Shown here piece after piece: positions 553-61,924 of a DNA stretch of 64,000 nt (its first letter is position 1; every line of letters starts with the position of its first letter). A model generated the notes under the pieces. The model was not told the origin of the DNA and did not search any database. It was given only the letters and a program-made list of their open reading frames with translations. The DNA comes from a virus. The position numbers and the translations under genes were made by a program. The stretch is from positions 1 through 64,000 of the IMG/VR virus record IMGVR_UViG_3300012001_000008, one strand, 5' to 3'.

Positions 553-861
553 AAGACTAATGATTGATATGATGTACTACCCAGTACAGACAACAATAGT
601 CTTATTAGCAGGATTTGCTATCTATTTCTTAGTTATATCATACATAGAAAAAAGGTGGTTAAAATAATGAAGCGAATCAAGGAAATGAGATTCATCGACT
701 GGATTATAGTGATAATACTTATCATTATGCTTGTATCAAGTGTAATGGGTGCTGTAACAAAATAGCCGTCAAATAGGCTCTGTACGGCGCTTGACTTCCG
801 AGTTGGGCGCATGTACCTTTTTCAAATAAAAACGCGCCAGAGACGCTTAGAAAGGCTCATA

Positions 862-4212: not shown

Positions 4213-4289
4213 TGGTGGGACTGGAAGGACTTGAACCTTCGACAATCTGCTTAAGAGGCAGCTACTCTAACCAACTGAGCTACAATCCC
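4213..4289 (-). tRNA. tRNA-Lys(CTT)
   Basis: Cloverleaf GGGATTG...CAGTCCC-A-CCA; anticodon loop CT-CTT-AA. Confidence 0.95.
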
Positions 4290-4519
4290 ATATGTTTGCA
4301 AGAACCGACCGTGCGCGTGGTTAAGGCACAGTTGATACAGTAGATTCTTATGTACTGAAAAGAGCGTGCTGGCATAAATACGTTTACCATTTCATTACAG
4401 CAAAAGCAACGAGGGCGACCATATTCTGCTATGAACTTGTCAATGAACTCGTGATTCAACAATCCTGGACGAACGTGCCGTCTTGCAGGTAAATCTGTTT
4501 GTTTTTTGACTATATCCAT
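4280..4519 (-). CDS. Small Cys-rich (zinc-finger-like) protein inside the tRNA cluster
   Basis: 79 aa, CFCC...CINC; TATAAT-N6-ATG; stop overlaps tRNA-Lys. Confidence 0.55.
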   Translation of the reverse strand: MDIVKKQTDLPARRHVRPGLLNHEFIDKFIAEYGRPRCFCCNEMVNVFMPARSFQYIRIYCINCALTTRTVGSCKHMGL

Positions 4520-4609
4520 ATTTCTATTATAAGGAAAGTGCTTAGGGAAGTTTTCGATATACTTTCACGAGGCAATTCCTGCTGGGTTTGCTCCCTATTG
4601 GCATAATTA

Positions 4610-4684
4610 TGGTGGAGTCGCAGAGAATCGAACTCTGGTTTCCTGCGTGCAAGGCAAGAGTATTAGCCACTATACGACGACCCC
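4610..4684 (-). tRNA. tRNA-Ala(TGC)
   Basis: Cloverleaf with G3:U70, loop CT-TGC-AC, encoded CCA. Confidence 0.95.
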
Positions 4685-4689
4685 ATATT

Positions 4690-4766
4690 TGGTGCCTTTG
4701 GAAGGACTCGAACCTTCAACCGCTTCGTTCGTAGCGAAGTACTCTATCCAATTGAGCTACACAGGC
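4690..4766 (-). tRNA. tRNA-Arg(ACG)
   Basis: Cloverleaf, loop CT-ACG-AA, encoded CCA. Confidence 0.95.
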
Positions 4767-4769
4767 ATT

Positions 4770-4844
4770 TGGTGGGCGATGTTGGATTTGAACCAACGAC
4801 TGGCAGTATATAAGACTGCTGTTCTGCCCCTGAACTAATCGCCT
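4770..4844 (-). tRNA. tRNA-Ile(TAT)
   Basis: Anticodon arm GCAGT-CT-TAT-AT-ACTGC, encoded CCA. Confidence 0.9.
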
Positions 4845-4850
4845 ATATTT

Positions 4851-4926
4851 TGGTAGCTCCCATGGGATTCGAACCCATACTTGAGGCGTTAGAACCACCT
4901 TGTCCTATCCGTTAGACGAAAGAGCT
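4851..4926 (-). tRNA. tRNA-Arg(TCT)
   Basis: Anticodon arm AGGTG-GT-TCT-AA-CGCCT, D-loop GGATA, encoded CCA. Confidence 0.9.
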
Positions 4927-5152
4927 ATATTTCTGCTTTAAGGTACTTGTTGAGCAACTCATTTATCTGGTTTATATGAACCATTCCTGATTGCGACAAC
5001 GCTATTTCGCCGAAGTGCCTACGAAGGACTTCGAAACCCTGTTCTAAGGCTTGCGCCTCTTCTTCTATTGTAATCTTTCTAACGTCTCTTAACAAGTCCT
5101 CTGCTTGGCGACGGATAAGGTTCTCATCTGGGTCTTTGCGATATGCTTCCAT
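4925..5152 (-). CDS. Hypothetical protein (75 aa, MEAYRKDPDE...) inserted between tRNAs
   Basis: 3' part of ORF 4925..5296; ATG 6 nt after TATAAT; the upstream extension overlaps tRNAs. Confidence 0.7.
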   Translation of the reverse strand: MEAYRKDPDENLIRRQAEDLLRDVRKITIEEEAQALEQGFEVLRRHFGEIALSQSGMVHINQINELLNKYLKAEI

Positions 5153-5166
5153 ATCCCTATTATACT

Positions 5167-5244
5167 TGGTGCGAGCGCAGGGAATCGAACCCTGTTCTTC
5201 TGGTTGGAAGCCAGACATAATATAAACCAGTATACTACGCAAGC
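5167..5244 (-). tRNA. tRNA-Gly(TCC), atypical acceptor stem
   Basis: Arm TCTGG-CT-TCC-AA-CCAGA; two mismatches in acceptor stem; encoded CCA. Confidence 0.85.
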
Positions 5245-5247
5245 GTA

Positions 5248-5324
5248 TGGAGCCGTGTTTCGGATTCGAACCGAAGACCTGATGCTTACAAAGCAACTGC
5301 TCTAGCCAACTGAGCTAACACGGC
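5248..5324 (-). tRNA. tRNA-Thr(TGT)
   Basis: Cloverleaf, loop TT-TGT-AA, encoded CCA. Confidence 0.95.
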
Positions 5325-5370
5325 ACGTCCAGGTGTTTAACGAGCTTACCCTGAAAGCTCAATAATTACT

Positions 5371-5446
5371 TGGTTGCGGGGGAGGGATTTGCACCCTCGA
5401 CCTTTTGCTTATGAGGCAAACGAGCTAACTACTGCTCCACCCCGCA
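5371..5446 (-). tRNA. tRNA-Met(CAT), initiator-like body
   Basis: GCGGGG/CCCCGC acceptor, GGAGCAG..AGCTCG D-arm, loop CT-CAT-AA, T-loop TGCAAAT. Confidence 0.9.
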
Positions 5447-5449
5447 TTA

Positions 5450-5525
5450 TGGTGGTTCGTGTAAGACTCGAACTTACGACAACTGGTATGTAACACCAGC
5501 GCTCTACCAACTGAGCTAACGAACC
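5450..5525 (-). tRNA. tRNA-Val(TAC)
   Basis: Arm CTGGT-GT-TAC-AT-ACCAG, encoded CCA. Confidence 0.95.
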
Positions 5526-5530
5526 GTACT

Positions 5531-5607
5531 TGGTTGGCGAGGAAGGACTTAAACCTTCGACCTCCTGTGTATCGGACAGGCGCTCTAATCAACTGAGCTA
5601 CTCGCCA
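5531..5607 (-). tRNA. tRNA-Ile(GAT), atypical loops
   Basis: Arm CCTGT-CC-GAT-AC-ACAGG (C33), T-loop TTTAAGT, encoded CCA. Confidence 0.85.
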
Positions 5608-5616
5608 TTATTCACA

Positions 5617-5970
5617 TTAAGAAATAATGTTGTTTGGGTCAAGGTAAGAAATGGCGTAGTTGTTATCTATCATCCACTTATTCACATTAACACCGTTGCT
5701 GATAATAATACCTAACCAACGCCCATACTTCTCTTTTTCGTCCTTGATTGTCTGTAGGGTGATTTGTTCACCTACTTGGATTTGAGTGAGTAGTGCGTCT
5801 CTAGAGGCTTCCCCCTGTGGTTTGGTGACACCTCTGATTTCAGGTGCATTTATTCCATAAATCCTAATTTTTAAGTTGCGCATTGTCATGTAAAGACCGA
5901 GGTCTACATCTACTGTGATTGTGTCTCCGTCATAGACCGAGACTACTGTTGCATTGTATATATAATTCAT
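5617..5970 (-). CDS. Thermonuclease (SNase)-family nuclease
   Basis: VYDGDTI, IRIYGINAPE and KYGRWL motifs. Confidence 0.85.
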   Translation of the reverse strand: MNYIYNATVVSVYDGDTITVDVDLGLYMTMRNLKIRIYGINAPEIRGVTKPQGEASRDALLTQIQVGEQITLQTIKDEKEKYGRWLGIIISNGVNVNKWMIDNNYAISYLDPNNIIS

Positions 5971-5990
5971 ATACTAATTATAGCAGTATT

Positions 5991-6065
5991 TGGTGGAAAT
6001 GGTGGGATTCGAACCCACGCTCGTTTGCTTAAAAGGCAAGTGCTGTACCGTCTAGCTTCATTTCC
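5991..6065 (-). tRNA. tRNA-Lys(TTT)
   Basis: GGAAATG/CATTTCC acceptor, loop CT-TTT-AA, encoded CCA. Confidence 0.9.
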
Positions 6066-7200: not shown

Positions 7201-7291
7201 CAAAACGCTTGTGTTTTTAGAAAAAAAGAGTTATAATTGATTCCAGTGAACGACAAAAGAGCGTCACAAAAACAAAGAAAGGCTCAAAATA

Positions 7292-7546
7292 ATGAGTAAA
7301 AAAGAAGTATCGGAACCAAAAGTCACTAAGGCTCAACCCCTTGAAGACGAGAACAAGCAAGCAAAAGGTGTCTTCGTTCGTGGTATAATCGGAATAGTGT
7401 TGCTATTAGTCTTTGGAAGTATAGTCTTTAGCACCGTGGTCATTTGGAATGGCACGGACAACCCAATGTTTAAGATATTGGTTGCCCCACAAGCCATCTT
7501 TGCCCTAGTAATTGCCTTCGTAGCATTTTCAAAAATACTTAAATAA
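7292..7546 (+). CDS. Two-TM membrane protein
   Basis: Promoter 7209-7237, AAGAAAGGCT RBS, two hydrophobic helices. Confidence 0.75.
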   Translation: MSKKEVSEPKVTKAQPLEDENKQAKGVFVRGIIGIVLLLVFGSIVFSTVVIWNGTDNPMFKILVAPQAIFALVIAFVAFSKILK

Positions 7547-8282: not shown

Positions 8283-8348
8283 ATGGGCTTGTGTTTTTAG
8301 AAAAAAAAGAGCATAATTCGAGTTATAAAGCAAACAAGAAAGGCTTAT

Positions 8349-8840
8349 ATGTACGCAAGCAGAGTAAAAATTAGTCAAGAAACCCGTAGTAAACTTAACA
8401 ACCCAGTACTAGATTCGCGCAAGAAAAGCGAGCTAAGGGTTCGTTTAGTATTAGATAAAATTAATAACAATCCAGGAGTTAGGTTTACGAAGCAAGAATT
8501 ACTTGCCACAGCAGGGTATAATCCATCGACGAATACACAAAACTACCAAACTGGACTTGCGTTTATTCGCAACATGGAAAAACGTGGTCTTATTGCCCAT
8601 AATAATACGCGAACATTCAGAAAGCACTGGTTTGTACTCTCTGAGGCGACCATTAAAACAACACCAAAGCAAGTAGCGAAGAGTATTCTGGCTAAAAGTC
8701 AACTAGCTGAAAAGCCAGTAGTAGAAGAAGTTGATATTAAAAAAGGTGTACAGGAAATTGTCACTCGACCGGCAAAAGACTTCGTATGGGAAACCAACTC
8801 AGATAGTCTACATGAGTTCGTTAAGTATTTGCAAGATTAG
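8349..8840 (+). CDS. Basic hypothetical protein, possible winged-helix DNA binder
   Basis: 163 aa behind promoter 8289-8317 and AAGAAAGGCT. Confidence 0.7.
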   Translation: MYASRVKISQETRSKLNNPVLDSRKKSELRVRLVLDKINNNPGVRFTKQELLATAGYNPSTNTQNYQTGLAFIRNMEKRGLIAHNNTRTFRKHWFVLSEATIKTTPKQVAKSILAKSQLAEKPVVEEVDIKKGVQEIVTRPAKDFVWETNSDSLHEFVKYLQD

Positions 8841-10266: not shown

Positions 10267-10457
10267 CCCAGCTCTCCTTTTTGAGTGAAAAAAATATATC
10301 CCCTGAACCAGGACATACCTTTTATTTTTTATTCTATATCTAATTATACTCCACGCATAGTAGAAAATATAGCTAAGAAAATGCGAAGATTGGGCTTGTG
10401 TTTTTTGACAAATGAGAGCATAATTCATAGTATAAGTAAATTAAGAAAGGCTTATAA

Positions 10458-10625
10458 ATGAACGAACCAGTACATATCGACGAAAACGATAACGTAGTTA
10501 TAAACATAAATGCGATTTCACCTTCATCGAAGATATATACGCACTGTAAAGAGTGTGGATGTGAATTGTTCGGTGGGGAACGCCAAGGAGAGGATGCAAA
10601 TGGATACTGCGACACCTGTAATTAG
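10458..10625 (+). CDS. 55-aa zinc-finger-like protein (MNEPVHIDE...CKEC...CDTC)
   Basis: Read from the sequence; directly after promoter 10396-10424 and AAGAAAGGCT. Confidence 0.7.
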   Translation: MNEPVHIDENDNVVININAISPSSKIYTHCKECGCELFGGERQGEDANGYCDTCN

Positions 10626-11901: not shown

Positions 11902-13140
11902 TTATTTCTTAAATGTGAATGACGACAAGAACTTCATCACTAGTTCGAAGACTCGTGTGAGCCAGCTTTTGGCTGTTTCGCCATTTACTGGGTCGATAGG
12001 GTCTACTACTGGTGGAGTTGGAGCGACGTATGAGCCTACAGAGATTACCTCTGCGATAGGCGCTGTTGTTACAGAGTCAGACTTAACGACGCGAGCAGTT
12101 TCTACGCCATCTGTGTAAGTGACCGTGTAAACGGTTGTACGCACACCATTAACGCCAGCTTGTGTGACTTTTTCTTGTCCGAGTGGGAGAGTAGCATCGG
12201 TTACTTTTGATGAAGAGAACGTCACAACCTGTGTTGTAGATACTTCTTTTGTCTCAATAACTGGGGCGACAACAAGTTCGAGGTCTACTTTATTAACACC
12301 AGTAGTCGCTTTTGGGGTTCCTGTTGTATCAGCAGTGCCGAATGAATAAGCAGTCATGTAGTATTCGCTACCTGTCTTGTAGACAGCCTTACCAACGATG
12401 TCGATAGTATCGCCAGCATTGAATGACTTAGATACAGTGAATTGAGCCTGTGTGTCAAAGTTAAAGTTCCATAGGTTTGCATTACGAATGAAACGATATG
12501 TTCCAGGAGCAATCTTCTGGTAGCTTTGCACAGCTGGTGTTGGAGCTGGTGGAGTAACAACTGGTGGGGGAGTCACGACAACAGGGGCTGTATTAACATA
12601 ATTAACAACTGTGTCACGCATTTCCATAATACGAGCAGGGCATTGTGTACCAAGCTGTGATACTTCTAGGTGTCCGTAGACGGTAGTAGCACCACCGAGT
12701 TCTTGGTCGCGTCCACGCCACCACTCACCGAGTACTTTAGCGTCTCCGTCGCGGAGTGTGTAGTTACGGTAGTCGCCGAGGTTCTCGATACCGATTGATG
12801 AACAGTTAACTGCCCAGTTACCAGCGTGCCATGTAATCTGTCCCCAGACATCATCTACAAGCTGTACAAGACGATAACCAGCTGCACGTTCAGCATCTGT
12901 CGCGTCAGGAGTTGTCCCGTCTACGCGCTGTCCAGCGAAGTGAGCCTGCGAGTATGAGCGAGCGCCTGTGTATGGGTTAGTTAGACCAGACCAGTTAGCG
13001 GCATCAGAGCCATAAGCTCGCGCGAAGCCGTTATCAGAAAACCACTGAGCGATTTCTGGCTTAGATTTCTCTTCCCATGTAGGAGTAACAGCATGGTGAA
13101 GAACAAGCTTGTTGACAAGTGTTCGGTTAGCGTCTGCCAT
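11902..13140 (-). CDS. Endolysin: N-acetylmuramoyl-L-alanine amidase with C-terminal G5 domain
   Basis: LVLHH, WHAG, SIGIE, YGH...TQCP amidase_2 motifs; Pro-rich linker; G5-like QAGVNG...TVTYTDGVE...VISVG. Confidence 0.85.
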   Translation of the reverse strand: MADANRTLVNKLVLHHAVTPTWEEKSKPEIAQWFSDNGFARAYGSDAANWSGLTNPYTGARSYSQAHFAGQRVDGTTPDATDAERAAGYRLVQLVDDVWGQITWHAGNWAVNCSSIGIENLGDYRNYTLRDGDAKVLGEWWRGRDQELGGATTVYGHLEVSQLGTQCPARIMEMRDTVVNYVNTAPVVVTPPPVVTPPAPTPAVQSYQKIAPGTYRFIRNANLWNFNFDTQAQFTVSKSFNAGDTIDIVGKAVYKTGSEYYMTAYSFGTADTTGTPKATTGVNKVDLELVVAPVIETKEVSTTQVVTFSSSKVTDATLPLGQEKVTQAGVNGVRTTVYTVTYTDGVETARVVKSDSVTTAPIAEVISVGSYVAPTPPVVDPIDPVNGETAKSWLTRVFELVMKFLSSFTFKK

Positions 13141-42025: not shown

Positions 42026-43441
42026 CTAGAAGCCAAGCCTATTCATGTTATGCTTATCGTCCTTAATCTTGCCGTGGAACTTGCTGTGCATACGGACAGC
42101 AATACTGAATGAGTCAGCGAAGTCGGGTGAGCGTCCGAGGACTTCTTTTATCTTGTCCTTCTTGGTGACCTTCTCTACACCATCCACCATATCGGTGTCA
42201 TGGGCAGATAGTTCTCGCCATAGCTCATCATCATGTCCTCTATAGGACTCTCTCTGTAGGACTTGGACTTCCCCTTCGTCTAATGCTCTACGCATATTGA
42301 GCATCGTTTCATTGCGCGACTTGCCTGTAGCGGTGTATTCGTCTATGTGCCAACCGAGTATCTTCATACTGTCACGCATAGCAGTACCAACGCCGTTTAC
42401 CTCTAGGCTTATCTGTCGTGCTTGTCCCTTAGTGAATCCCTTGCTCTCGGCGAAGGCAATTAACTGCTGGGCGAATAGGTATCCTGTTGGGCGCGAGTCT
42501 ATCTCGCTATTCTGACCATAGGTGCGTTCAGGAATCTTGAGTTCCTTCTGCTCTGTGAGAACGCCATACTCAATAAGACTGACTACGGTAGCGTCGCCAC
42601 CATTATCGCTTACGTCCACGCCGATGACCTTGTCTAGCTTATAGCGTGAGTCTTTAGGAATGACGTTGCCCTGCTCGTCTCGCTCTGGCTCTGGTAGCTT
42701 GAAGATGCTTGCCTTCTCCCACAGGTAGCCAGTAATGAGGGCGCGGTCTTCATCGAGATAGTTCCAGTTATTGTAGAGGTAGCGTTGCGCCCACCACTTT
42801 GGCTTGCTCTTTATAAGGGAGTTAATGTCTTGGTCGGTCTGCCAAGAGTCCTCTAGGGTGAACTCTATGACCATAACATTGCTAGGTAGTTCGTTCTTCT
42901 TCCACTTGTCGTAGTAACGGCTCTTTGTCCAACCGTTATTAGGGTTCATTGTGTGGATGTTAATGCTTGGCTGTCCCTGTTGGTTAGCACGACCTTTACG
43001 ACTCATAATCATGTCTACTGCATCTTCGATTAGCTCGTTGCTTTCCTCTAGTTGGTTAGCGGTAATGTCGAGTCCCTTAATCTTGTTCTGGTCGCGGTCG
43101 GTAGAGCTATCTGCTTGGGCGAAGGTGATAATGCTCTTATTGGGGAACTCAATCAAGAGTGAGCCTTCATTAAGGCGATAGTGGTCTTCCTCAATCATGT
43201 TCATATCGGCGAGCATCTTCTTGTATGTACGCCAGATAGTCTTACGCGCAGTGTTGAAGTTCTTGCGCCAGACAAACATCTGCGAGTAGGGGAACTCGTT
43301 AGCTATAGAGATGAAGACATGGGCAGCGAGAGCAGACTTACCCACACCAGTTGGACCAATAAGAATCAACTCGTCAATATCTGGACGGTTGTTAAGGATG
43401 TCGATGACCTCTTGTTGCTTAGGCTTAAGCTGTAGAGCCAT
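42026..43441 (-). CDS. Terminase large subunit
   Basis: LKPKQ, Walker A GPTGVGKS, TMNP coupling motif, nuclease IGVDVS and LGRSPDFADS. Confidence 0.92.
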   Translation of the reverse strand: MALQLKPKQQEVIDILNNRPDIDELILIGPTGVGKSALAAHVFISIANEFPYSQMFVWRKNFNTARKTIWRTYKKMLADMNMIEEDHYRLNEGSLLIEFPNKSIITFAQADSSTDRDQNKIKGLDITANQLEESNELIEDAVDMIMSRKGRANQQGQPSINIHTMNPNNGWTKSRYYDKWKKNELPSNVMVIEFTLEDSWQTDQDINSLIKSKPKWWAQRYLYNNWNYLDEDRALITGYLWEKASIFKLPEPERDEQGNVIPKDSRYKLDKVIGVDVSDNGGDATVVSLIEYGVLTEQKELKIPERTYGQNSEIDSRPTGYLFAQQLIAFAESKGFTKGQARQISLEVNGVGTAMRDSMKILGWHIDEYTATGKSRNETMLNMRRALDEGEVQVLQRESYRGHDDELWRELSAHDTDMVDGVEKVTKKDKIKEVLGRSPDFADSFSIAVRMHSKFHGKIKDDKHNMNRLGF

Positions 43442-45160: not shown

Positions 45161-45717
45161 GCGAATAATGCCTCATTGAGTGCTTCTTTGGTTGGGTACT
45201 TTTTTAGTAGGTTTTCTACTGTGGCGAAACGTGTCTTCACTTCTGAATCTAGTCGGAAGTCGTGACTGTTATCTGCTATCTTCCTATCCATTTCTGATTT
45301 AGTTTCTGCCGTTATAAAGTTGTAGTAGCCTGAACCGTGGAAGTCTGGATAGTTCGTTACCATCTTTGCTATATGAATCATTATGCGTACACCTGCTTTC
45401 CGAATAGTGCGTACTGAATTACTGCATCGCCATTCAAGACTGTCATAGTCATCAAAGTCGTGCTTATCCATGAGCTTTAATCCCTTAAGGAACTTAGTGA
45501 GCGTTAACTGATGCCACTTCGAGTCCTCGGCATCCCAAATACGGATACGGTAACCATTAGTGAGCGCATCAGATGTCCACATACCATCATCTGCTTTTTT
45601 CAAACCGATGATGTCTGCCTCTCCTGCCCAGTAGCTAATACCGTTTAATGCAGACGACATAATGTCATTGATATTCTCATCAGTGACGACAATCTTCTTT
45701 TCGATAATCCTACTCAC
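45157..45717 (-). CDS. Two hypothetical genes (about 45381-45717 and 45157-45381) apparently fused by a 1-nt insertion near 45433
   Basis: Removing one base restores ...DGDAVIQYALFGKQVYA-stop overlapping the ATG of MIHIAK. Confidence 0.6.
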   Translation of the reverse strand: MSRIIEKKIVVTDENINDIMSSALNGISYWAGEADIIGLKKADDGMWTSDALTNGYRIRIWDAEDSKWHQLTLTKFLKGLKLMDKHDFDDYDSLEWRCSNSVRTIRKAGVRIMIHIAKMVTNYPDFHGSGYYNFITAETKSEMDRKIADNSHDFRLDSEVKTRFATVENLLKKYPTKEALNEALFA

Positions 45718-45925
45718 TTAATAGTCCTTCCGTAGAAATGACTTGCCAAATCTCACCCCAGTTAAATGCAACGATTGCCACAAGGACGATAGCGAGCGCT
45801 ATACAGATTCCTAATGCGAGAGTTGTGCCGTTATAGTCTTCGTTCATTTGTTTAAAGCCTTTCTTACTGTCTTTATATTTTAATTATGCTCTTATTCGGC
45901 GAAAAACACAAGCCCTTTTATCAAA

Positions 45926-45954
45926 GAAAATAGACGCCATTATAGCGCCTATCT
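45926..45954 (-). terminator. Intrinsic terminator closing the non-coding transcript
   Basis: ATAGGCGC-TATAATG-GCGTCTAT-TTTCTTT on the minus strand. Confidence 0.7.
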
Positions 45955-45982
45955 TTCACATCCCCTTTGAACTCAATCCCAC

Positions 45983-46466
45983 ATTAAGCGCACAATTCTG
46001 GTAAGTAGCTCGTTTGTCGTGCAGGGGCTACTTTAGGATTGAGGTGGCGACCCTTCGCTGTTTCGCGTATCGTGACTCATTTGATACTTACCAGAACTAT
46101 GTGTTTAATTATTAAATGCACACACGGGGGGACGTTTTCACCAATGACCGTTTTAGATGGACAGTCCACGGTTTCAGAAGGACTTATACAACGGAGCTAC
46201 CGTCTTGTAACCTCATATCCGCCGTGTGGCGTAAGTAGCTACCTCCCCCTCTGTGTGCATTTATTCAATAAGTGACAATCCAGCAAGCACGTCCGTAGAC
46301 ACATGTATCCTACGGCGTACTCGTGTGTACATCACAGGGGGTATTCTTCGCGTTGCAGGGTTAGTGGTTCCGCTCCCCCATCTGGGCTATGACTATTTTC
46401 CGATTGCCGTCCCTCACTCTTGCAAGAGCTTCTCGGTTCGACCTGCTTACCAGATTATCACTTATT
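45983..46466 (-). ncRNA. Candidate ncRNA with three tandem units, each closed by a long stem
   Basis: Inverted repeats 45983-46007/46085-46109, 46113-46132/46244-46263, 46267-46289/46444-46466; promoter 46490-46518; no sense ORF of 60 aa or more. Confidence 0.7.
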
Positions 46467-46522
46467 TGTCTGTTAATGTTCTATAGTTAATTATGCTCTT
46501 TTATGTGCGAAAACACAAGCGT

Positions 46523-48217
46523 TTAATCACGCAATTTTTCAGCAATTTTTGTGTCCACGAAGTAGCCACCCTTTGGGTCAGGAGTGACACCACGAGCATA
46601 CTCTCGCTCACCACCTGTCATGCTACAGAACGGACACTTATGCTGGTAATAAAGGACATACTCATTATTACCATCTGCCATTAGCGCCCTCGGTAGTCGT
46701 GTCTCTGGACCAAGAACTCTACAGTTATGGTAGTAAACTGGTGTTGCTTCTGATGTCTGGGTCATTATATCTCCTCCATTGTGTCTACATCTATTTCGTG
46801 CATTTCTATTTGGCGCGGCATATTCCAGTCGGCGAATGCCGTATCAACAAGATAGTGCTTATCTGTGTTGGGCTGTCCCTCATTAAAGGCATAGAGTGGA
46901 CCTTCTTTTTTGAAGTAATAACCCTCTCGTACACGACGCTTACCCGTGAATCGGTCGGGTGTTGGGTCTATGTCTAACGCCTTATAGCGCTTAGGCTCAT
47001 ATCCGAGTATTTTAGGGGGCATTATTAGTAGCCTTTCTTAATCATAAATGTTACCACAAAGATAAACCCCTTATAATTCCGCTTTGCAGGGTATGTGCCT
47101 TCCATCGGCAAACTTGTAAGCTTATACAAGCCAAGTATGAATGTGCGCCTATCATCAAGGAACTCAGGTCTCTTGTATAGCCTACATTGTACCTGCCACT
47201 TGTTAGGTGTGTATTTCATCAGTATCTCGATGGAGTGCTTTCGCCGAACGAAGCCTCACCTGTTAGTTGCCTTGTTAGTAGTTGACGAATGTTAACGCCA
47301 TTCTCCTCAGCTTTCGATAGCACCTCGCTCAGAGAGACGCCCATCTCTACATAGCCACCTGCTTGGCAGTCCCAGCCTGTGTAGTCGCAACCACCCTGTA
47401 TATACGCATAGGTGTGGTCTTTCATGGCAATAATCCAGTGGAAGTCTGGACCATCATTCTCTCCCTGTAGATAAGCAAGCACATAGGCGACATCTTCGAG
47501 CGCGAAGCCCTTAGTATCGGTGATTGCATAGCTCATAGCTGCTGATAGGTCGTAGTCTATACGACGCTCAACTGCATCTGTTTCGTGGTCATAGTAATAA
47601 CTCATTTTCTTCTCCTTATTTATGGTTGAACTTCAAATATCTGAATATGGAACACGGACGATAATACGAATGCGGTGAGGGCGATAATAATACATATCAG
47701 TACCCATGCGGTGGCTAGCGAGATAAGACCGAATGTCAAATAGAATAATATCGCTAACTTTGGATGCTTCGCGAGCCACATCGCTCGTCTAAACTGCTTA
47801 TCGTTCATAGTATCTTTCTCTTTCCGCACTTAGTGCATAATTTTGCTCTTACTTCGGCGGGAACGGCTATTCCCCCACCGACACCAGCTAACCAGTGATA
47901 TACTTTAACTTTACCTATATATGACCAGCGATGCCAACACATTAGCTCATGTCCACTTTCCAATAGATTTTACATTTAGTACACCATTGAGTAACATCGC
48001 TACCACTAGGAGTGTGTTGTTTGCTATGCCACGCATTAGGGAATGCTGAGTAATAGTTATGGGCATGGTCAACACAGTTCGTATACCTATCTGGATTCAT
48101 AGTCCAGTTATTGTGCCATCCTAAAAACTCGTACCCCATCGTGATGAGCTTTTCTTCTTCGGGCGGAATATCCCTGAATTGCAGTGGGTCTAGTTCTTTT
48201 GTGTATGGTGATTTCAT
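46523..48217 (-). CDS. Run of small hypothetical genes (46523-46765, 46765-47022, 47025-47219, 47219-47605, 47620-47808, 47942-48217)
   Basis: Closely spaced or TAATG-coupled ORFs; 47219-47605 has a GGCDYTGWDC motif. Confidence 0.65.
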
Positions 48218-52467: not shown

Positions 52468-54117
52468 TCACGAAACATCTCCCCTCTTATTAACAAAGAT
52501 TTTGAGGGTTCGTCCGTCGTCCTGTAGTGAAGCCTCGACTTGCTTATTAGCATTCCAGAACACTACTTCGCGTCCGATACCCATACCGTTGCCGTGGCAA
52601 GATGGGCATTCGAAACGTCCAGGCTGTCCAGAGATATAGATAGTTCCTACGCCAAGACAAGCGTCACAGATAGTATTATCAATAATCTCTAGGCGAGTGA
52701 CGTTAGATAAGTTTTCCATCGTTTTCCTCATCTCTATAGTCTTTAGCCCATTCTTTCAATTCTTCCGATACATGAGAATAAGCTTTCTTCTCATCATCCG
52801 TGTTGTCGTACTCTTCGCTCTTGTTCTCAACCCAGCCGTCAATCATTTTGGCAAAAGCCTCAAGAACATTTGCGGTTTGTTCGTTATTACTCATTCCAAG
52901 CCCTCTTGAATCGTGCTTGATATGCAGAACGCCCCATACCAGTTTGTGCCACGCATTGTGCTTCAAGTTCGGCTTCGTAGTCGGCAGAGTTCATAAACTC
53001 CTCTTGCACCTTACGAGCCACTTGCTTAACAACAATATGTTGTGGGCGATTAACTGGCATGTGACGTACTATTTCACTCCTGTATCCCATTGAGACAGCT
53101 TCCGCTTTAGTCTTGATGACTATGTCTTCGATGGTTGGGTATTCGACGGTTATTGTAGTTTTCATTGTTATAAGCCTTTCTTATTTGCCTTATAACTAGA
53201 ATTATGCGCCTTTTTCGCCGAAAACACAAGCCCTTTGTTAGGCTTTTTGTAGTTTTGGTTGAAACCGAGCGTCGTTATACTCTTGGATAGCCTCGATAAT
53301 TAGTCGGGGGTTATAACGATTGCTGATTGCGCGAGCAATGGTAAGGGAGCTACATCCAGCTTCGTGCATTGCTGCATATTCTGCCTTCAAGGTTTCCTTA
53401 ATTTGTTCGTTAGTTCTACGAATCATATTGTCCTCCTTTCTTTACAACACCAATTATGGGGTTATTTATAGGAAAACACAAGCCCAATTTATAAAAACTT
53501 GTGATTACACTTGCGACACACCGTAACTTTGTTCAGATACAGTCCTACCGCCGTCTTTAGTAATCTCAGTGACAACTTTGCGCTTAATTGCGCCACAATT
53601 AGGGCATTTTATCTTACCGCTATTGACTATAAGTGCAACTGGGACATAGACTACAATAAATAAAATTGGAGTAATAACAAAGATTGCGAATAGTATCCAG
53701 AGAATCGTGTTATTATAATTAGCCTGCTCTTGGGCAAGGACTAATGATTGGTTATACGCTTGTAATGTATCCATATTTTGAATTATGCTCTATTTTTTAT
53801 AAAAACACAAGCACTAGCTTTTTGCACCACCGTGGAAGGCTGCGTAGAGCAAGATTCCAGCAATTATAAGTAGGAATAAAATCGTCATAATACTGCCTTG
53901 CAGTTCTTCGTCATTCAACAATGATAGTAGTCTTTTCACTTGGCTTTTCCTTTATCGCTTTAACAATTTCTATTGCTATCTGTAACCCATTATGAGAACC
54001 AAATCGAAACCATTTAACACTTCTCTCATCGGCGACATCTATTTCAAGCTTCTTAACATCGACGAGCTTGAGCATTTCCACCAATTCTTGTTTTTGTTTT
54101 TTAGTTAGATTCACCAT
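52468..54117 (-). CDS. Small hypothetical genes (52468-52719 DnaJ-type CxxCxGxG, 52703-52894, 52887-53165, 53238-53426, 53505-53774 TM plus zinc ribbon, 53911-54117)
   Basis: ORFs, four of them directly behind their own promoter copy or variant (53201, 53453, 53782, 54132). Confidence 0.65.
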
Positions 54118-54167
54118 AATCTCCTACTCTCAGTATAGCGATAATACCCCAAAAACGCAAGCATAAT

Positions 54168-54478
54168 AAAAGACCACCCGCTAAGATGGTCTTTTGCTTT
54201 CGGCAAAACAATTGTCATGCCTCTGAGCGCGGTTGTGGGTTGGGCTTCGTCCTTCAACGATTTTCCAACATTCGGACGCCTCGACTAGTCTAGAAGTAAA
54301 TCTTTTGTAGTTTTGGTAATGCGTCCGTTCAACTCCATAGGAATCTTGTCACTCTGTCAAGAGGTTTTCGATTCATTGCCACCGAGTCCTTGGTTACTCC
54401 TCGATGTACGCTACACTTTCGTGCCTATTAGGTGCTTTAGCCGTCGAGATACTTATTAAGCTACCACAACGCTCATAT
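54168..54478 (-). ncRNA. Candidate ~300-nt structured RNA
   Basis: Promoter TTGAAT-N17-TATTAT at ~54483-54511; closing stem TGAGCG-TTGTGG / CCACAA..CGCTCA; internal helices; terminator AGACCA../TGGTCT-TTT; no ORF of 60 aa or more. Confidence 0.65.
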
Positions 54479-54539
54479 ATACATAATAGCATAACCTGTT
54501 TTATTATTCAAGCATTTTATGTAGTGGAATAGTCTACAA

Positions 54540-54637
54540 GCAAAGAGACACCAATTAAGGTGTCTCCCAAGAAAGGCTATTAGTAACCACAGCATCCGCT
54601 CACAACTAAACGATACGGTGCTTACTGCTACTAACAT
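54540..54637 (-). ncRNA. Candidate ~95-nt sRNA with anti-RBS segment AGCCTTTCTT
   Basis: Promoter 54643-54671, 5' hairpin, unpaired AGCCTTTCTT, terminator GAGACACC/GGTGTCTC. Confidence 0.6.
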
Positions 54638-54660
54638 TTCTAATTATGCTCTTTTATTTG

Positions 54661-55182
54661 CTAAAACACAACCCCATTGTGCCTTTTAATTACCTCCTCT
54701 ATATCTGCTTGACTGACCTTATTGCCAGAGTGAGCGAGTTGTTTAAGATTATCTATTGCTTCATCGCCATATTGGGCGCGTAGCTTAATCTCGTAGACCT
54801 TTAGATTTCCACCCTTTACGACATTACATTCGTTGCACTGTGGGTGACAGTTTATATCATTCCAGCGTGTGTTCAGGAATCGGCGGTTTATGAAGTGACC
54901 ATTCTGTAGCTCTTCGAACTTACGGTTGCAGGTATAACAATACTCGCTTAAGCCTCTAATATAGGCAGAATGGTACTTATCGGCGTATCCTATGAGCTGA
55001 CTACGTTCAGAATTGCCCTTGTAACGTAACGTAAGCCTCTGTGGGGCGTTTTGGGACGAAAGTGGGGGAATTGTGCGTTTTCGGTTATAAGTCTCTTGGA
55101 AGGGCTTAATTTCGCGCTTTTCACATTTATTCTTTGAATGCCAAATCGACCCGCACCATTTACACGGCTTGTGGGTCAACAT
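54661..55182 (-). CDS. NinG/Rap-like recombination endonuclease
   Basis: CYTC, QNGHFINR, TRWNDINCHPQCNECN. Confidence 0.85.
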   Translation of the reverse strand: MLTHKPCKWCGSIWHSKNKCEKREIKPFQETYNRKRTIPPLSSQNAPQRLTLRYKGNSERSQLIGYADKYHSAYIRGLSEYCYTCNRKFEELQNGHFINRRFLNTRWNDINCHPQCNECNVVKGGNLKVYEIKLRAQYGDEAIDNLKQLAHSGNKVSQADIEEVIKRHNGVVF

Positions 55183-55220: not shown

Positions 55221-55918
55221 TTATTTTCCATCGCGTTCCTCACCAAACCATTTTTGGGTATCTGCCCATAGGTTCTTTATATTTTTATCAAGTAGTTCGT
55301 AGGCATAGCAACATGCGCAACGAGAACTTACTGGGCTATCTTTGAGTTCTGGAAAGTCCTCTAAGTCTAAGACTTCGCAACGCTTTCCCCATATTTTAGA
55401 ATAGGCTTTCTCAACCTTGCGCTTAAATACTTCGAAGTCTTTATCCATACTTCTATTATAGAGTATCGGTAGTATGTCCGCAAGCGTCATGTGTATTATT
55501 ATTCATCACCTCACGTTCTTGCTCGCACCAGTTACACTTCTCATAATGCCAATACCAACGAGACTCCTTGTCATCACCAACACCAGCGAATTGCCAGTTA
55601 TGGTTACAGGTCATTTGCTTCCATACCTTCTGTAGCTCAACTAAAAACATATTATTAACCACGGAAGCCCGCAATCTTACGCATATTTACTTCTGTGTTA
55701 TGCTTTGCTGTCTTTAGGTCATATAAGATATTATGGATAATTTGTCGTTCCTCGGAAGAGTTGTTATCGGTTAACTCCTGCATAAGCCCAGCACGAACTT
55801 TCTGTATCTCTTCTTGCGCGGCATACTTGCCTTCGAGGTCGGTGAACTTAATGTTCATCAGGCGTTCAATCTCGTATTCCTCACGCTTTGTTTCATCGAA
55901 TTGTTTTAAGTCTGTCAT
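55221..55918 (-). CDS. Small hypothetical genes (55221-55448, 55456-55653, 55655-55918)
   Basis: ORFs behind promoter 55952-55980. Confidence 0.6.
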
Positions 55919-56005
55919 TGTGTAAGCCTTTCTTAATGAATTACAACTTGAATTATGCTCTCAATTATGGCAAAACACAACCCCCTTTTCGTATAATAAG
56001 GATAT

Positions 56006-56395
56006 ATGTATTACAAACAAGGTGGAGTCTGGAAAAAAGACACCAAGAAAAACCTACAAATTGTCTCGCCTTCAACTTTGAAGCGTAAGCGTGACGCCTT
56101 TGAGCGCAAGAAGCTTACGCAAGCTTTCAAACGCTGGCGAAGTTACCAGTACAGGACTCAAGGGGGTCTCTGTTACTATTGTCTTCATCCGATTGATGGG
56201 GCTTGGCATACAGACCACTTTATACCACTGGGCAGGTTCTATGGCACTTCTGCCTACAAGAACCTGAGAGTCTGCTGCTCCCACTGTAACTACTACAAGT
56301 CCGTTCAATACCCCACCGCTCGCATACTTGCCGAGCTTAGGAGCGGTGTGGCTTGTCGTCATATTCACAAAGTCTCTAGAACCTCTGTCTTGTAA
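56006..56395 (+). CDS. HNH endonuclease
   Basis: CYYC...HTDHFIP...NLRVCCSHCNYYK. Confidence 0.85.
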   Translation: MYYKQGGVWKKDTKKNLQIVSPSTLKRKRDAFERKKLTQAFKRWRSYQYRTQGGLCYYCLHPIDGAWHTDHFIPLGRFYGTSAYKNLRVCCSHCNYYKSVQYPTARILAELRSGVACRHIHKVSRTSVL

Positions 56396-57126
56396 CCGTG
56401 GTTATTTAGCCGTAGCTCCCACGTTCCTTTACCCTTGCTCTGATATACCTTACAGTAATCTGGGTAGTCTTCGGCGAGAATCTTCGCAGCTCTCTCAATA
56501 ATCTTAGGTGTGCGCTTCTCTTGCATACCGCCTGGTTGCTTGTAATAAGCGGTGTTAACAGTGATGTAGTCAAATCTAACCAGTCCACCTTCTTCGGCAA
56601 ATACTTGGAATCCGCGACGGTAGTCATCTTTTTCATCTGTGAGGACATGGTGAGCCTCTGAACCTGTGTTAATTAGACCCCAGCAAGAACCAACCTGTAG
56701 GAATAGACCGCGTGTAATACGGGGCTTCATAAAGAAGGCGTTACGCGCTGCATAGATACCCCATGTACTTGTGCCGAGTTGGTGGCATAGTTCAAAGCCC
56801 TTTTTAGCAAAGTCGAGATTGCTCTCTACAAGCTTCTTGCCATCCTTAGATAGCTTCTCAAATGACTTAATATCATCATCTACGAATAGAATCTCTGTTC
56901 CCTTTGGGTAATAATCTAATATGCGCGAGACATTCTTGCTCTTGGTGGGGACGGAGTCTACAATCTTGACCATGCCACCAGTCTGACGGACATAGTCATC
57001 GTGTTCCTCTGGGTCGCTTAGGAAAACCGTGACATCAGCCAAATTAGCCCCACTACGAATAAGTGAGGCTATGGTTAGTTCAAAAATCTTATCGGCGCGA
57101 CGGTAGCTAGGAATTGCTATTTGCAT
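56365..57126 (-). CDS. TET-associated (GREB1-like, GT-A fold) glycosyltransferase
   Basis: IAIPSYRRA, FVDDDI, WGIY, EKDDY, PGGMQ motifs; adjacent to the oxygenase. Confidence 0.8.
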   Translation of the reverse strand: MQIAIPSYRRADKIFELTIASLIRSGANLADVTVFLSDPEEHDDYVRQTGGMVKIVDSVPTKSKNVSRILDYYPKGTEILFVDDDIKSFEKLSKDGKKLVESNLDFAKKGFELCHQLGTSTWGIYAARNAFFMKPRITRGLFLQVGSCWGLINTGSEAHHVLTDEKDDYRRGFQVFAEEGGLVRFDYITVNTAYYKQPGGMQEKRTPKIIERAAKILAEDYPDYCKVYQSKGKGTWELRLNNHGYKTEVLETL

Positions 57127-60859: not shown

Positions 60860-61924
60860 TTATTTATTCCTACCTACTATTATATCGGTTCGGTCATTAG
60901 AGAACTTTAGCCGTGCGCAGATGCCAATGTTAATCTCGCGCGAGATAGCTCTCTGCTGTTCATAGCTAATATAACCATACTCGCTAAACTTACGAGATGC
61001 TGGCATAGATACCTTTTCTAGCCACTTCTTCCAACGAGCATCTACATCGTCTTCCTCGAAGAAGATTGGATTAGCATGAGAAGCTTCCATATCGAATCCA
61101 TAGTGACTCTTTTCGTACTCGTTACCAACTGGCTTGTACTGGTTTAACATGAACGAAAGCTCTGGTAGCATAAAACGAAGTACACCAAAATCTTCCATCA
61201 ACTGAATACCAGTACTGGAATACTCACCCATAAGTAGCTTATCTATCTCTTGTACCCAGCGCTCTCTTGATACGTCTAAAATACGAGCTGCAAGCTGTCT
61301 TGCCTTACCAGTAAAGTTTGGGTCAACAGTGAAGCCGTAACGCGCTGCAAATCGAGCTGCACGAAGCATACGGAGAGGGTCTTCCTGAATCCTATCCTTT
61401 GGAAGTCCAACTGTAACAATCTTCTTTCCATGAATATGTAGCTTACCACCGTATGGGTCATAGATAGTTCCGTCTGGGCGAAGCACCATAGCGTTCATCG
61501 TGAAGTCACGGCGAGCAAGGTCTGAATCAATATCTGTCACAAAAGTAACATCAGGTTGACGGCTCTTGCTCGTATAAACCTCGGTGCGGAAAGTAGTTAC
61601 CTCTACATATTCATAAACGGTGTGAAACTCCTTGTACCTTTCTACGTCACCCCATACCTTCTTCATTTCTTCGTTTGTTGGAACCTCAACTGGAACCTTG
61701 AAACCGATAGTGCCATGCTTCTTGCCATTACCAACAAAGTAAGCGTGGCGTCCAGCGTCATGCACGAGCTTCTCCATTTCTTCAACAAGTAACGGGGTGG
61801 TGAAGTCGTAGTCCTTCGGAGTATTGCCCATAACGATGTCTCGCACTGCGCCACCAACAAGATATACCTCGTCTGTACCGAGAATCCTTATTACTTCTTG
61901 CTGAATTGCTAGTGCCTTTTCCAT
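60860..61924 (-). CDS. cca: CCA-adding tRNA nucleotidyltransferase family enzyme
   Basis: YLVGGAVRD, DYD, EVTTFR, DLARRDFTMNAM, EDPLRMLRAARF, SRERW; no obvious HD domain. Confidence 0.9.
   Translation of the reverse strand: MEKALAIQQEVIRILGTDEVYLVGGAVRDIVMGNTPKDYDFTTPLLVEEMEKLVHDAGRHAYFVGNGKKHGTIGFKVPVEVPTNEEMKKVWGDVERYKEFHTVYEYVEVTTFRTEVYTSKSRQPDVTFVTDIDSDLARRDFTMNAMVLRPDGTIYDPYGGKLHIHGKKIVTVGLPKDRIQEDPLRMLRAARFAARYGFTVDPNFTGKARQLAARILDVSRERWVQEIDKLLMGEYSSTGIQLMEDFGVLRFMLPELSFMLNQYKPVGNEYEKSHYGFDMEASHANPIFFEEDDVDARWKKWLEKVSMPASRKFSEYGYISYEQQRAISREINIGICARLKFSNDRTDIIVGRNK

Follow-up and report, generated by a model that had tools for sequence, protein, structure and literature searches.

An antisense copy of a ribosome-binding tag in a conserved phage locus: a candidate small RNA repressor of the phage's own genes

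Why should a phage keep, between two predicted RNA hairpins, an exact complement of the ribosome-binding site (RBS) of its own genes? The question is raised by a locus at 54540-54671 on the minus strand of the IMG/VR record IMGVR_UViG_3300012001_000008, a single contig of 72.9 kb from an uncultured soil phage. We have analysed the first 64 kb (64,000 nt) of this record, here called the window, and we refer to the phage as G000. The locus lies directly after a NinG-like gene. We find that it is probably a selected, structured and non-coding unit. That it functions as a trans-acting anti-RBS small RNA, repressing a regulon of small early ORFan genes, is a reading to which we give about an even chance.

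The unit begins with a copy of a promoter-like module, GCTTGTGTTTT and GAGCATAATT separated by 11-12 nt, of which there are 17 copies in the 72.9-kb genome. A relaxed regular expression gave 19 matches, from which two overlapping one-mismatch matches at 54092 and 54094 (+) were discarded as spurious. The start of an open reading frame (ORF) follows within ~60 nt in 14 cases; of the others one heads the tRNA cluster, the copy at 46518 (-) heads an ORF-free stretch, and one is the copy of the small RNA. The last was found as originally claimed at 54643-54671 (-), with a -35 element TTGTGT (54671-54666), a spacer of 17 nt and a -10 element CATAAT (54648-54643). It overlaps the final codons and stop of the NinG-like gene (54661-55182 (-); Pfam NinG, 1.1e-12; PHROG NinG/Rap), so that the gene ends inside the -35 element.

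The start of the RNA was assumed to lie 6 nt past the -10 element, at 54637, and the RNA that was folded was 101 nt in length. The predicted fold agrees with the arrangement of 5' hairpin, unpaired linker and 3' hairpin put forward in the original prediction. A long, imperfect hairpin occupies RNA positions 2-60 (54578-54636 (-)), and is followed by the single-stranded linker GCCUUUCUU. Nine bases of the linker are predicted to be unpaired (54577-54569, RNA positions 61-69), with unpaired probabilities of 0.63-1.0 per base. Here lies the seed AGCCUUUCUU (54569-54578 (-)), the exact reverse complement of AAGAAAGGCT. The 3' hairpin, a putative intrinsic terminator (54543-54568 (-), RNA positions 70-95), comprises 10 bp including two basal G-U pairs, and has the loop UUAAUU. 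The U-tract beyond it (UGCUUG, 54537-54542 (-)) is weak and interrupted, and the stem takes its first two U. The minimum free energy of the fold is -37.4 kcal/mol (z = -4.65), and none of 200 shuffled sequences folds equally well. Placing the start of transcription 3 nt further upstream leads to pairing of a 5' GAAA with part of the seed.

The sequence AAGAAAGGCT, which we term the tag, occurs eight times in the window where 0.18 copies are expected, and eight copies were not reached in any of 100 shuffles. Seven of the copies run in the sense of a gene and are followed after 3-8 nt by an ATG; promoter copies stand in front of six of them. The remaining copy is antisense and lies in the linker of the small RNA (54569-54578). 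The seed had been proposed to be a perfect reverse complement of the RBS of at least six promoter-proximal genes; all six were found, together with the further copy at 47030-47039 (-). The exact tag serves as the RBS at six of the 14 ORF-linked promoter copies, and eight or nine of its ten bases are present at three more. In five of the six promoter-proximal cases the predicted 5' end of the message and the first base of the tag are 11-12 nt apart. Other genes of G000 are served by ordinary AAGGAG-type sites, as judged by crude gene calling.

Four of the predicted targets are on the minus strand. The tag at 55925-55934 precedes an 87-aa gene (55655-55918), which opens the operon that has the small RNA at its end, and its predicted interaction with the RNA is -12.5 kcal/mol (cofold difference). 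The tag at 53173-53182 precedes a 92-aa ORFan (52887-53165) behind promoter copy 53229, that at 47030-47039 an 85-aa ORFan (46765-47022) without an upstream promoter copy, and that at 45856-45865 a 45-aa membrane-like ORF (45710-45847) behind promoter copy 45911. On the plus strand the tag is found at 10443-10452 before a 55-aa ORF (10458-10625; promoter copy 10396), at 8336-8345 before a 163-aa ORFan (8349-8840; promoter copy 8289) and at 7275-7284 before an 84-aa ORFan (7292-7546; promoter copy 7209). The 9-mer AGAAAGGCT at 849-857 (+), before ATG 862, is a possible extra target by sequence match. The tagged genes, which are ORFans of 45-163 aa, have no Pfam or PHROG match. They are probably early genes of host takeover.

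Predicted interaction energies between the small RNA and the tags are in the range -8.8 to -17.5 kcal/mol. The best duplex is formed with the tag at 8336-8345; it has 11 Watson-Crick pairs (-17.5 kcal/mol) and ranks first among 124 translation start regions. The tags are mostly accessible, with mean unpaired probabilities of 0.56-0.70 in the six promoter-proximal leaders. Ordinary AAGGAG sites pair poorly with the small RNA, the background median being -5.1 kcal/mol.

The locus is carried by two related uncultured phages, G001 (IMG/VR 3300020061_000001, 99 kb with terminal repeats) and G003 (IMG/VR 3300020444_000002, 86 kb), whose NinG-like proteins are 66% and 60% identical to that of G000 in amino acid sequence. 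In both, the promoter copy, 5' hairpin, linker and 3' hairpin directly follow the NinG-like gene, and in all three phages the promoter copy is ~45-65 nt upstream of the seed. The sequences of the 5' hairpins cannot be aligned (there is a 13-nt indel), and each is predicted to fold 2-4 nt from the predicted 5' end; the z-scores of the folds are -2.87 for G001 and -5.00 for G003. The 9-nt core GCCTTTCTT is invariant in the three phages. It is predicted to be largely single stranded in the relatives also, with unpaired probabilities of 0.81-0.97 in G001 and, in G003, of 0.92-1.0 over UUUCUU and 0.51 for the preceding C. In G003 the 5' stem is predicted to take up the first two bases of GCCUUUCUU, GC, together with the preceding G.

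Over the 46 columns that run from the seed to a little beyond the 3' hairpin, G000 and G001 differ at only two. The 3' helix is paired in 30 of 30 cells across the three phages and its loop is invariant. In G003 two of its ten pairs have undergone compensatory change (A-U to C-G and C-G to U-A), and one G-U has become A-U. There is a 2-nt indel between seed and 3' hairpin among the three phages, and conservation of sequence runs ~20 nt beyond the hairpin. The 3' tails of the three phages are UUUGCUUG, UUUCCUUG and UUACCUUUUG, those of G001 and G003 also being imperfect. Of the terminator that was originally proposed the 10-bp hairpin stands as a conserved feature, but the U-tract is weak and a consensus scan made no call.

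The tag is conserved together with the seed. G001 contains seven exact copies, i.e. five promoter-proximal RBSs, one that is apparently intragenic and one antisense copy in the RNA. All five RBSs read TAAGAAAGGCT (preceded by T), and would form 11 Watson-Crick pairs with the CUUA of its own RNA. G003 has nine copies of AAGAAAGGC, comprising six promoter-proximal RBSs (five GGCT and one GGCA), two intragenic copies and one antisense copy. Five of these six RBSs read CTAAGAAAGGC (preceded by CT), matching the CUUAG of its own RNA in a duplex of 11 Watson-Crick pairs and one G-U, where the seed has G for A. Thus the promoter-proximal RBSs of both relatives keep AAGAAAGGC(T), and the complementarity of seed and tag extends over 10-12 bp in the three phages (11-12 bp in G001 and G003). 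Each phage has exactly one copy of the tag that is antisense to local transcription, always in the small-RNA unit, and in all three the operon that ends in the small RNA opens with a tagged gene.

The orthologs of the 92-aa ORFan (52887-53165) in G001 (L012) and G003 (L041) keep the tag where the rest of the leader varies, and the G001 ortholog (L015) of the 55-aa ORF (10458-10625) also keeps it. In orthologous genes the tag is fixed, including the GCU that lies beyond the usual Shine-Dalgarno (SD) core, whereas other leader sequence and the spacing to the ATG vary. A more distant phage, G002 (terminase 51% identical), has no RNA locus, no exact tag and none of this promoter class. Since only four genomes are compared, this co-occurrence is suggestive only.

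We infer from these data that the RNA is produced and where it begins and ends, that it pairs in vivo, and the direction and timing of its effect. The repeated promoter of the phage would drive a non-coding RNA gene of ~85-100 nt. The 5' hairpin would probably protect the end of the RNA, and the 3' hairpin would end both the small RNA and the upstream NinG operon. The linker GCCUUUCUU would form 10-12 bp with AAGAAAGGCU, the extended tag for ribosome binding, which several messages with short leaders have at 11-12 nt from their predicted 5' ends. This pairing would cover the SD region so that initiation is blocked, and decay would probably be hastened. In this way a single RNA could turn down the whole gene set. 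The RNA and its targets belong to a common promoter class, so that repression would grow stronger with accumulation of the stable RNA.

A number of observations weigh against a trans-acting anti-RBS RNA. A promoter class shared by the small RNA and its targets provides no temporal switch by itself. The unit has its own promoter and a 3' stem-loop able to end a transcript, as is expected for a trans-acting small RNA that masks RBSs, except that the consensus terminator scan did not call the 3' hairpin; with the weak U-tract in its tail UUUGCUUG the hairpin may terminate poorly. A search of sequencing runs for G000 returned only four DNA runs of one soil study and no RNA run. For the 3' helix the shuffle control is powerless, there being only three sequences, and the observed values are equalled in 54 of 500 shuffles. 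The seed and the tag are both nearly invariant in the three genomes, so there is co-conservation without covariation between seed and target, and the sole change in the seed (A to G in G003) merely converts an A-U pair into G-U. Seven of the paired bases are those of an SD facing an anti-SD-like sequence, leaving only ~3-5 additional pairs that are specific to the tag. Judged from the sequences, it is the extension on both sides of the SD core that is the phage-specific part of the complementarity.

Nor does energy-based target prediction provide independent evidence. A genome-wide duplex scan found many chance sites at similar energy (-15 to -19 kcal/mol). When the 124 start regions are ranked, the tagged genes are placed 1, 4, 5, 12 and 16 by construction, and a variant with nine of the ten bases and unrelated sites interleave with them; three of the tagged genes had been missed in this ranking by the crude gene caller. 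The original proposal of a trans-acting small RNA has gained co-conservation of the seed with the RBS motif in both relatives, a check that it had itself named.

Directly beyond the unit is a second candidate structured RNA of ~310 nt (54165-54476 (-)), with a promoter-like site at 54483-54511 (-) and a strong terminator at 54168-54195 (-). It has no match in Rfam. All three phages have an extended -10 element (TGnTATyAT), always equally far from the 5' end, where A[T/A]GAGCG is conserved. RNAalifold applied to the three sequences gave 77 base pairs, 23 of which have compensatory changes. Junction strands are conserved, a helix closes the fold, and a covarying stem bears a GAAA loop that is conserved as well. 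Of the two RNAs at the locus, this may be the more unusual.

According to the main rival explanation, the unit would chiefly serve to close the NinG operon, or as leader to a longer transcript. The hairpin would then be a terminator, attenuator or processing site before the large RNA, and the C/U-rich stretch would be kept for termination, processing or protein binding rather than for pairing with RBSs. The hairpin does directly follow the NinG-like gene in all three phages, its weak U-tract makes read-through into the conserved ~310-nt RNA plausible, and conservation continues for ~20 nt past it. Yet a full promoter copy, for which an operon end has no use, is kept in all three phages only ~45-65 nt before the seed. 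The large RNA has a conserved extended -10 element of its own, with constant spacing to its conserved 5' end. Moreover, the exact complement of the tag would be left unexplained. We consider this explanation unlikely.

The seed might instead be a general mimic of the tail of 16S rRNA, CCUUUCU binding any A-rich SD and so damping host translation or buffering access to ribosomes; the match to the phage's own tag would then be a side effect. Seven of the ten paired bases are indeed the anti-SD-like core quoted in the original prediction. Moreover, C/U-rich seeds that mask SDs are usual in small RNAs of Gram-positive bacteria, and the host may be Gram-positive. What makes the proposal decidedly improbable is that the complementarity passes the SD core on both sides in a phage-specific manner (GC/GCU on one side and, in G001 and G003, UA or CUA on the other), and that the ordinary AAGGAG sites of the phage score poorly against the RNA (median -5.1 kcal/mol).

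It is very improbable that the antisense tag is a scar of recombination, i.e. an inverted fragment of the promoter-RBS module that has no function. The module is repeated 17 times and could recombine, and if the hairpin is removed the plus strand upstream of the tag reads weakly like a module leader. However, a scar should decay in the way that the unalignable 5' hairpin has, but the 9-nt core is invariant and is located in the linker of a folded unit in three phages out of three. In addition, on the plus strand the promoter half of the module is absent at the right distance.

Least probable of all is that a dimeric protein uses the inverted repeat as its DNA operator, with which paired changes in both half-sites would also be consistent, or that the region encodes a small protein, for which G000 does offer a 54-codon ATG frame: the repeat occurs once in the window with up to three mismatches allowed where operators usually recur, frames are not conserved, a 2-nt indel separates seed and hairpin, and the 54-aa product has no PHROG match. 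As to the reading frames, none is conserved on either strand. The seed is in phase 0 in the ATG frame of G000 and phase 2 in that of G001, and the open frame of G003 has its only start inside the promoter. The frame from ATG 54637, translation of which had been named as grounds for abandoning the small RNA, is thus not conserved among the three. The same was said of a plus-strand RBS belonging to a decayed gene, a reading that we reject: the plus-strand tag is not followed by a start codon close enough to be used, and the phages share no plus-strand frame.

The small-RNA unit matches no known family of RNA in Rfam, models of phage c4 and Gram-positive small RNAs included. There was no match at the gathering score; a permissive scan of the region gave a best E of 0.22, which is at the level of chance, and for the G001 and G003 loci there was nothing at E<=5. 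An exact-pattern scan for seed plus stem found three stretches, of which two are chance matches in coding sequence. The metagenome pattern scan gave three stretches, i.e. the G001 phage again and two chance matches, and there were no matches in the GTDB genomes. Patterns of the large RNA found only G001 and G003 in IMG/VR. A looser three-block pattern gave 23 viral and 88 genome stretches; with other loci added, including those of G001 and G003, 117 loci were scanned. This gave 112 matches, of which four passed a hairpin-or-promoter filter, all in four loci covering the known G001 and G003 sites. Besides G001 and G003, a search with a NinG profile found only five relatives, with identities of 30-31%, and two NinG loci at 37% identity (L002 and L003) are without the small-RNA unit.

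The terminase of G000 (42026-43441) has ~33 clusters at 76-88% identity in a collection of 5.8 billion proteins, mostly from Logan assemblies, from which it follows that the clade is larger than the phages compared here. One of the clusters spans 29 contigs and is also present in a Tara source; none carries the name of an organism or host. From these sequences the clade looks widespread, with no cultured member found. The G000 locus had no match among public phage records by megablast or blastn, and the terminase matched only phages of Bacteroidota in public records, at 21-28% identity.

The genome has a G+C content of 44.6%, and its genes include those for a tape-measure protein, tail, portal and terminase, with 11 tRNA genes. 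We note several further features of its promoters and gene content. The 11 tRNA genes sit behind a promoter copy, and the regions 4213-6065 (-), 60860-61924 (-) and 64354-66553 (-) (the last in genome coordinates, beyond the window) constitute an RNA-maintenance kit. This includes a tRNA nucleotidyltransferase (PHROG, 3e-56) and, judged by eye from the translations, polynucleotide kinase-phosphatase-like and RNA-ligase-like ORFs. The promoter copy at 46518 is followed by ~560 nt (~45930-46490 (-)) without a same-strand ORF of at least 50 aa or a match in Rfam; ~100 nt of this stretch are 77% identical to G003:42581-42678, and it is possibly another non-coding RNA. The 89-aa gene at 53505-53774 (-) may be served by a leaderless mRNA, its ATG lying 8 nt past the -10 CATAAT of promoter copy 53810 without an SD. 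A free-standing HNH endonuclease gene (56006-56395 (+)) lies between minus-strand early genes and overlaps the upstream end of the promoter region of the tagged operon.

The ORF at 56365-57126 (-) has one PHROG match, to beta-glucosyl-HMC-alpha-glucosyltransferase, and several ORFs at 66951-71733 (-) of the genome, past the end of the window, resemble glycosyltransferases by eye; these may point to modified DNA. The 412-aa ORF at 11902-13140 (-) is likely to be the endolysin, with Amidase_2 and G5 domains. Together with the strong SDs, this endolysin-like ORF and its putative wall-binding domain hint at a Gram-positive host.

How would a trans-acting anti-RBS RNA compare with known systems? 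The closest counterpart of the tag itself is the start-associated sequence (SAS) of Cluster K mycobacteriophages. This is a 13-bp sequence, GGGATAGGAGCCC, lying 3-7 bp before the starts of non-structural genes, and some of the positions conserved in it are unable to pair with 16S rRNA. It is found in one orientation, except that each K1 genome has a single opposite copy, away from gene starts; the authors of its description leave open whether the reader is RNA or protein (PMC3203893). In a 2025 paper it is still 'proposed to play a role' (PMC12699233). The G000 tag as compared with these accounts is likewise longer than an SD and lies 3-8 nt before starts, in seven sense copies and one antisense, and G001 and G003 show the same pattern. 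Its motif, phage group and host phylum differ, so that AAGAAAGGCT is an analogue of SAS and not a member of the family. In G000 and its relatives the opposite copy is contained in a conserved and foldable unit that runs from promoter to hairpin, and this is a candidate for the reader.

The c4 RNA lies in the same operon as its target, and the G000 RNA resembles it in being in an operon with one predicted target, i.e. the first gene (at 55918). In a 2025 review, c4 of phages P1 and P7 and sar of P22 are described as small RNAs that pair with the RBS region of a phage mRNA and block its translation, the complementary stretches being exposed in the fold; each controls one antirepressor message in a temperate phage (PMC12197685). 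By contrast, a single seed in G000 matches a tag that is common to at least seven genes in separate transcription units, and the RNA has no match in Rfam and no sign of a role in immunity. In the open-access texts searched, including sections of that review, phage small RNAs are described as acting on single targets or on host genes, and none as reading a shared RBS tag (PMC12197685).

The seed has a different set of counterparts on bacterial chromosomes. In Gram-positive bacteria small RNAs such as RsaE/RoxS and the hairpins of RNAIII use a pyrimidine-rich unpaired seed to mask the SDs of many mRNAs, without long antisense overlap. The G000 RNA too has a pyrimidine-rich unpaired seed that would mask SDs. 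Those RNAs are chromosomal regulators of metabolism or virulence and usually present CCC motifs in their loops, whereas the G000 RNA is borne by a phage, has its seed in a linker between two hairpins, and has the phage's own tagged genes as its predicted targets. Phage T4 shuts down its early messages through their translation-initiation regions using the proteins RegA (repressor) and RegB (endoribonuclease). A post-transcriptional shut-down of a set of early messages is proposed here as well, with RNA in place of protein as the reader.

The plausible new aspect is a regulon-wide anti-RBS small RNA of a phage, with the mode of action of c4 and sar. If so, a whole class of phage genes would be under the control of one short RNA by way of an RBS address that they have in common. 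This would be a simple and portable means of timing early expression without a protein regulator, and the pair of seed and tag is small and specific enough to be used as an orthogonal translational switch. It would also suggest, in a form that can be tested, what reads RBS-adjacent tags such as SAS, a question that dates from 2011. Rather more tentatively, we suggest that phages could mark a private regulon by extending the SD into a tag, to be read by one small RNA that outcompetes the ribosome and shuts down genes of host takeover. In G000 this RNA would share a transcript with the tagged gene that heads its operon, so that the operon might fold back on itself too. The logic of such a private tag would explain SAS with its single opposite-strand copy, and would be the RNA counterpart of RegA and RegB in T4.

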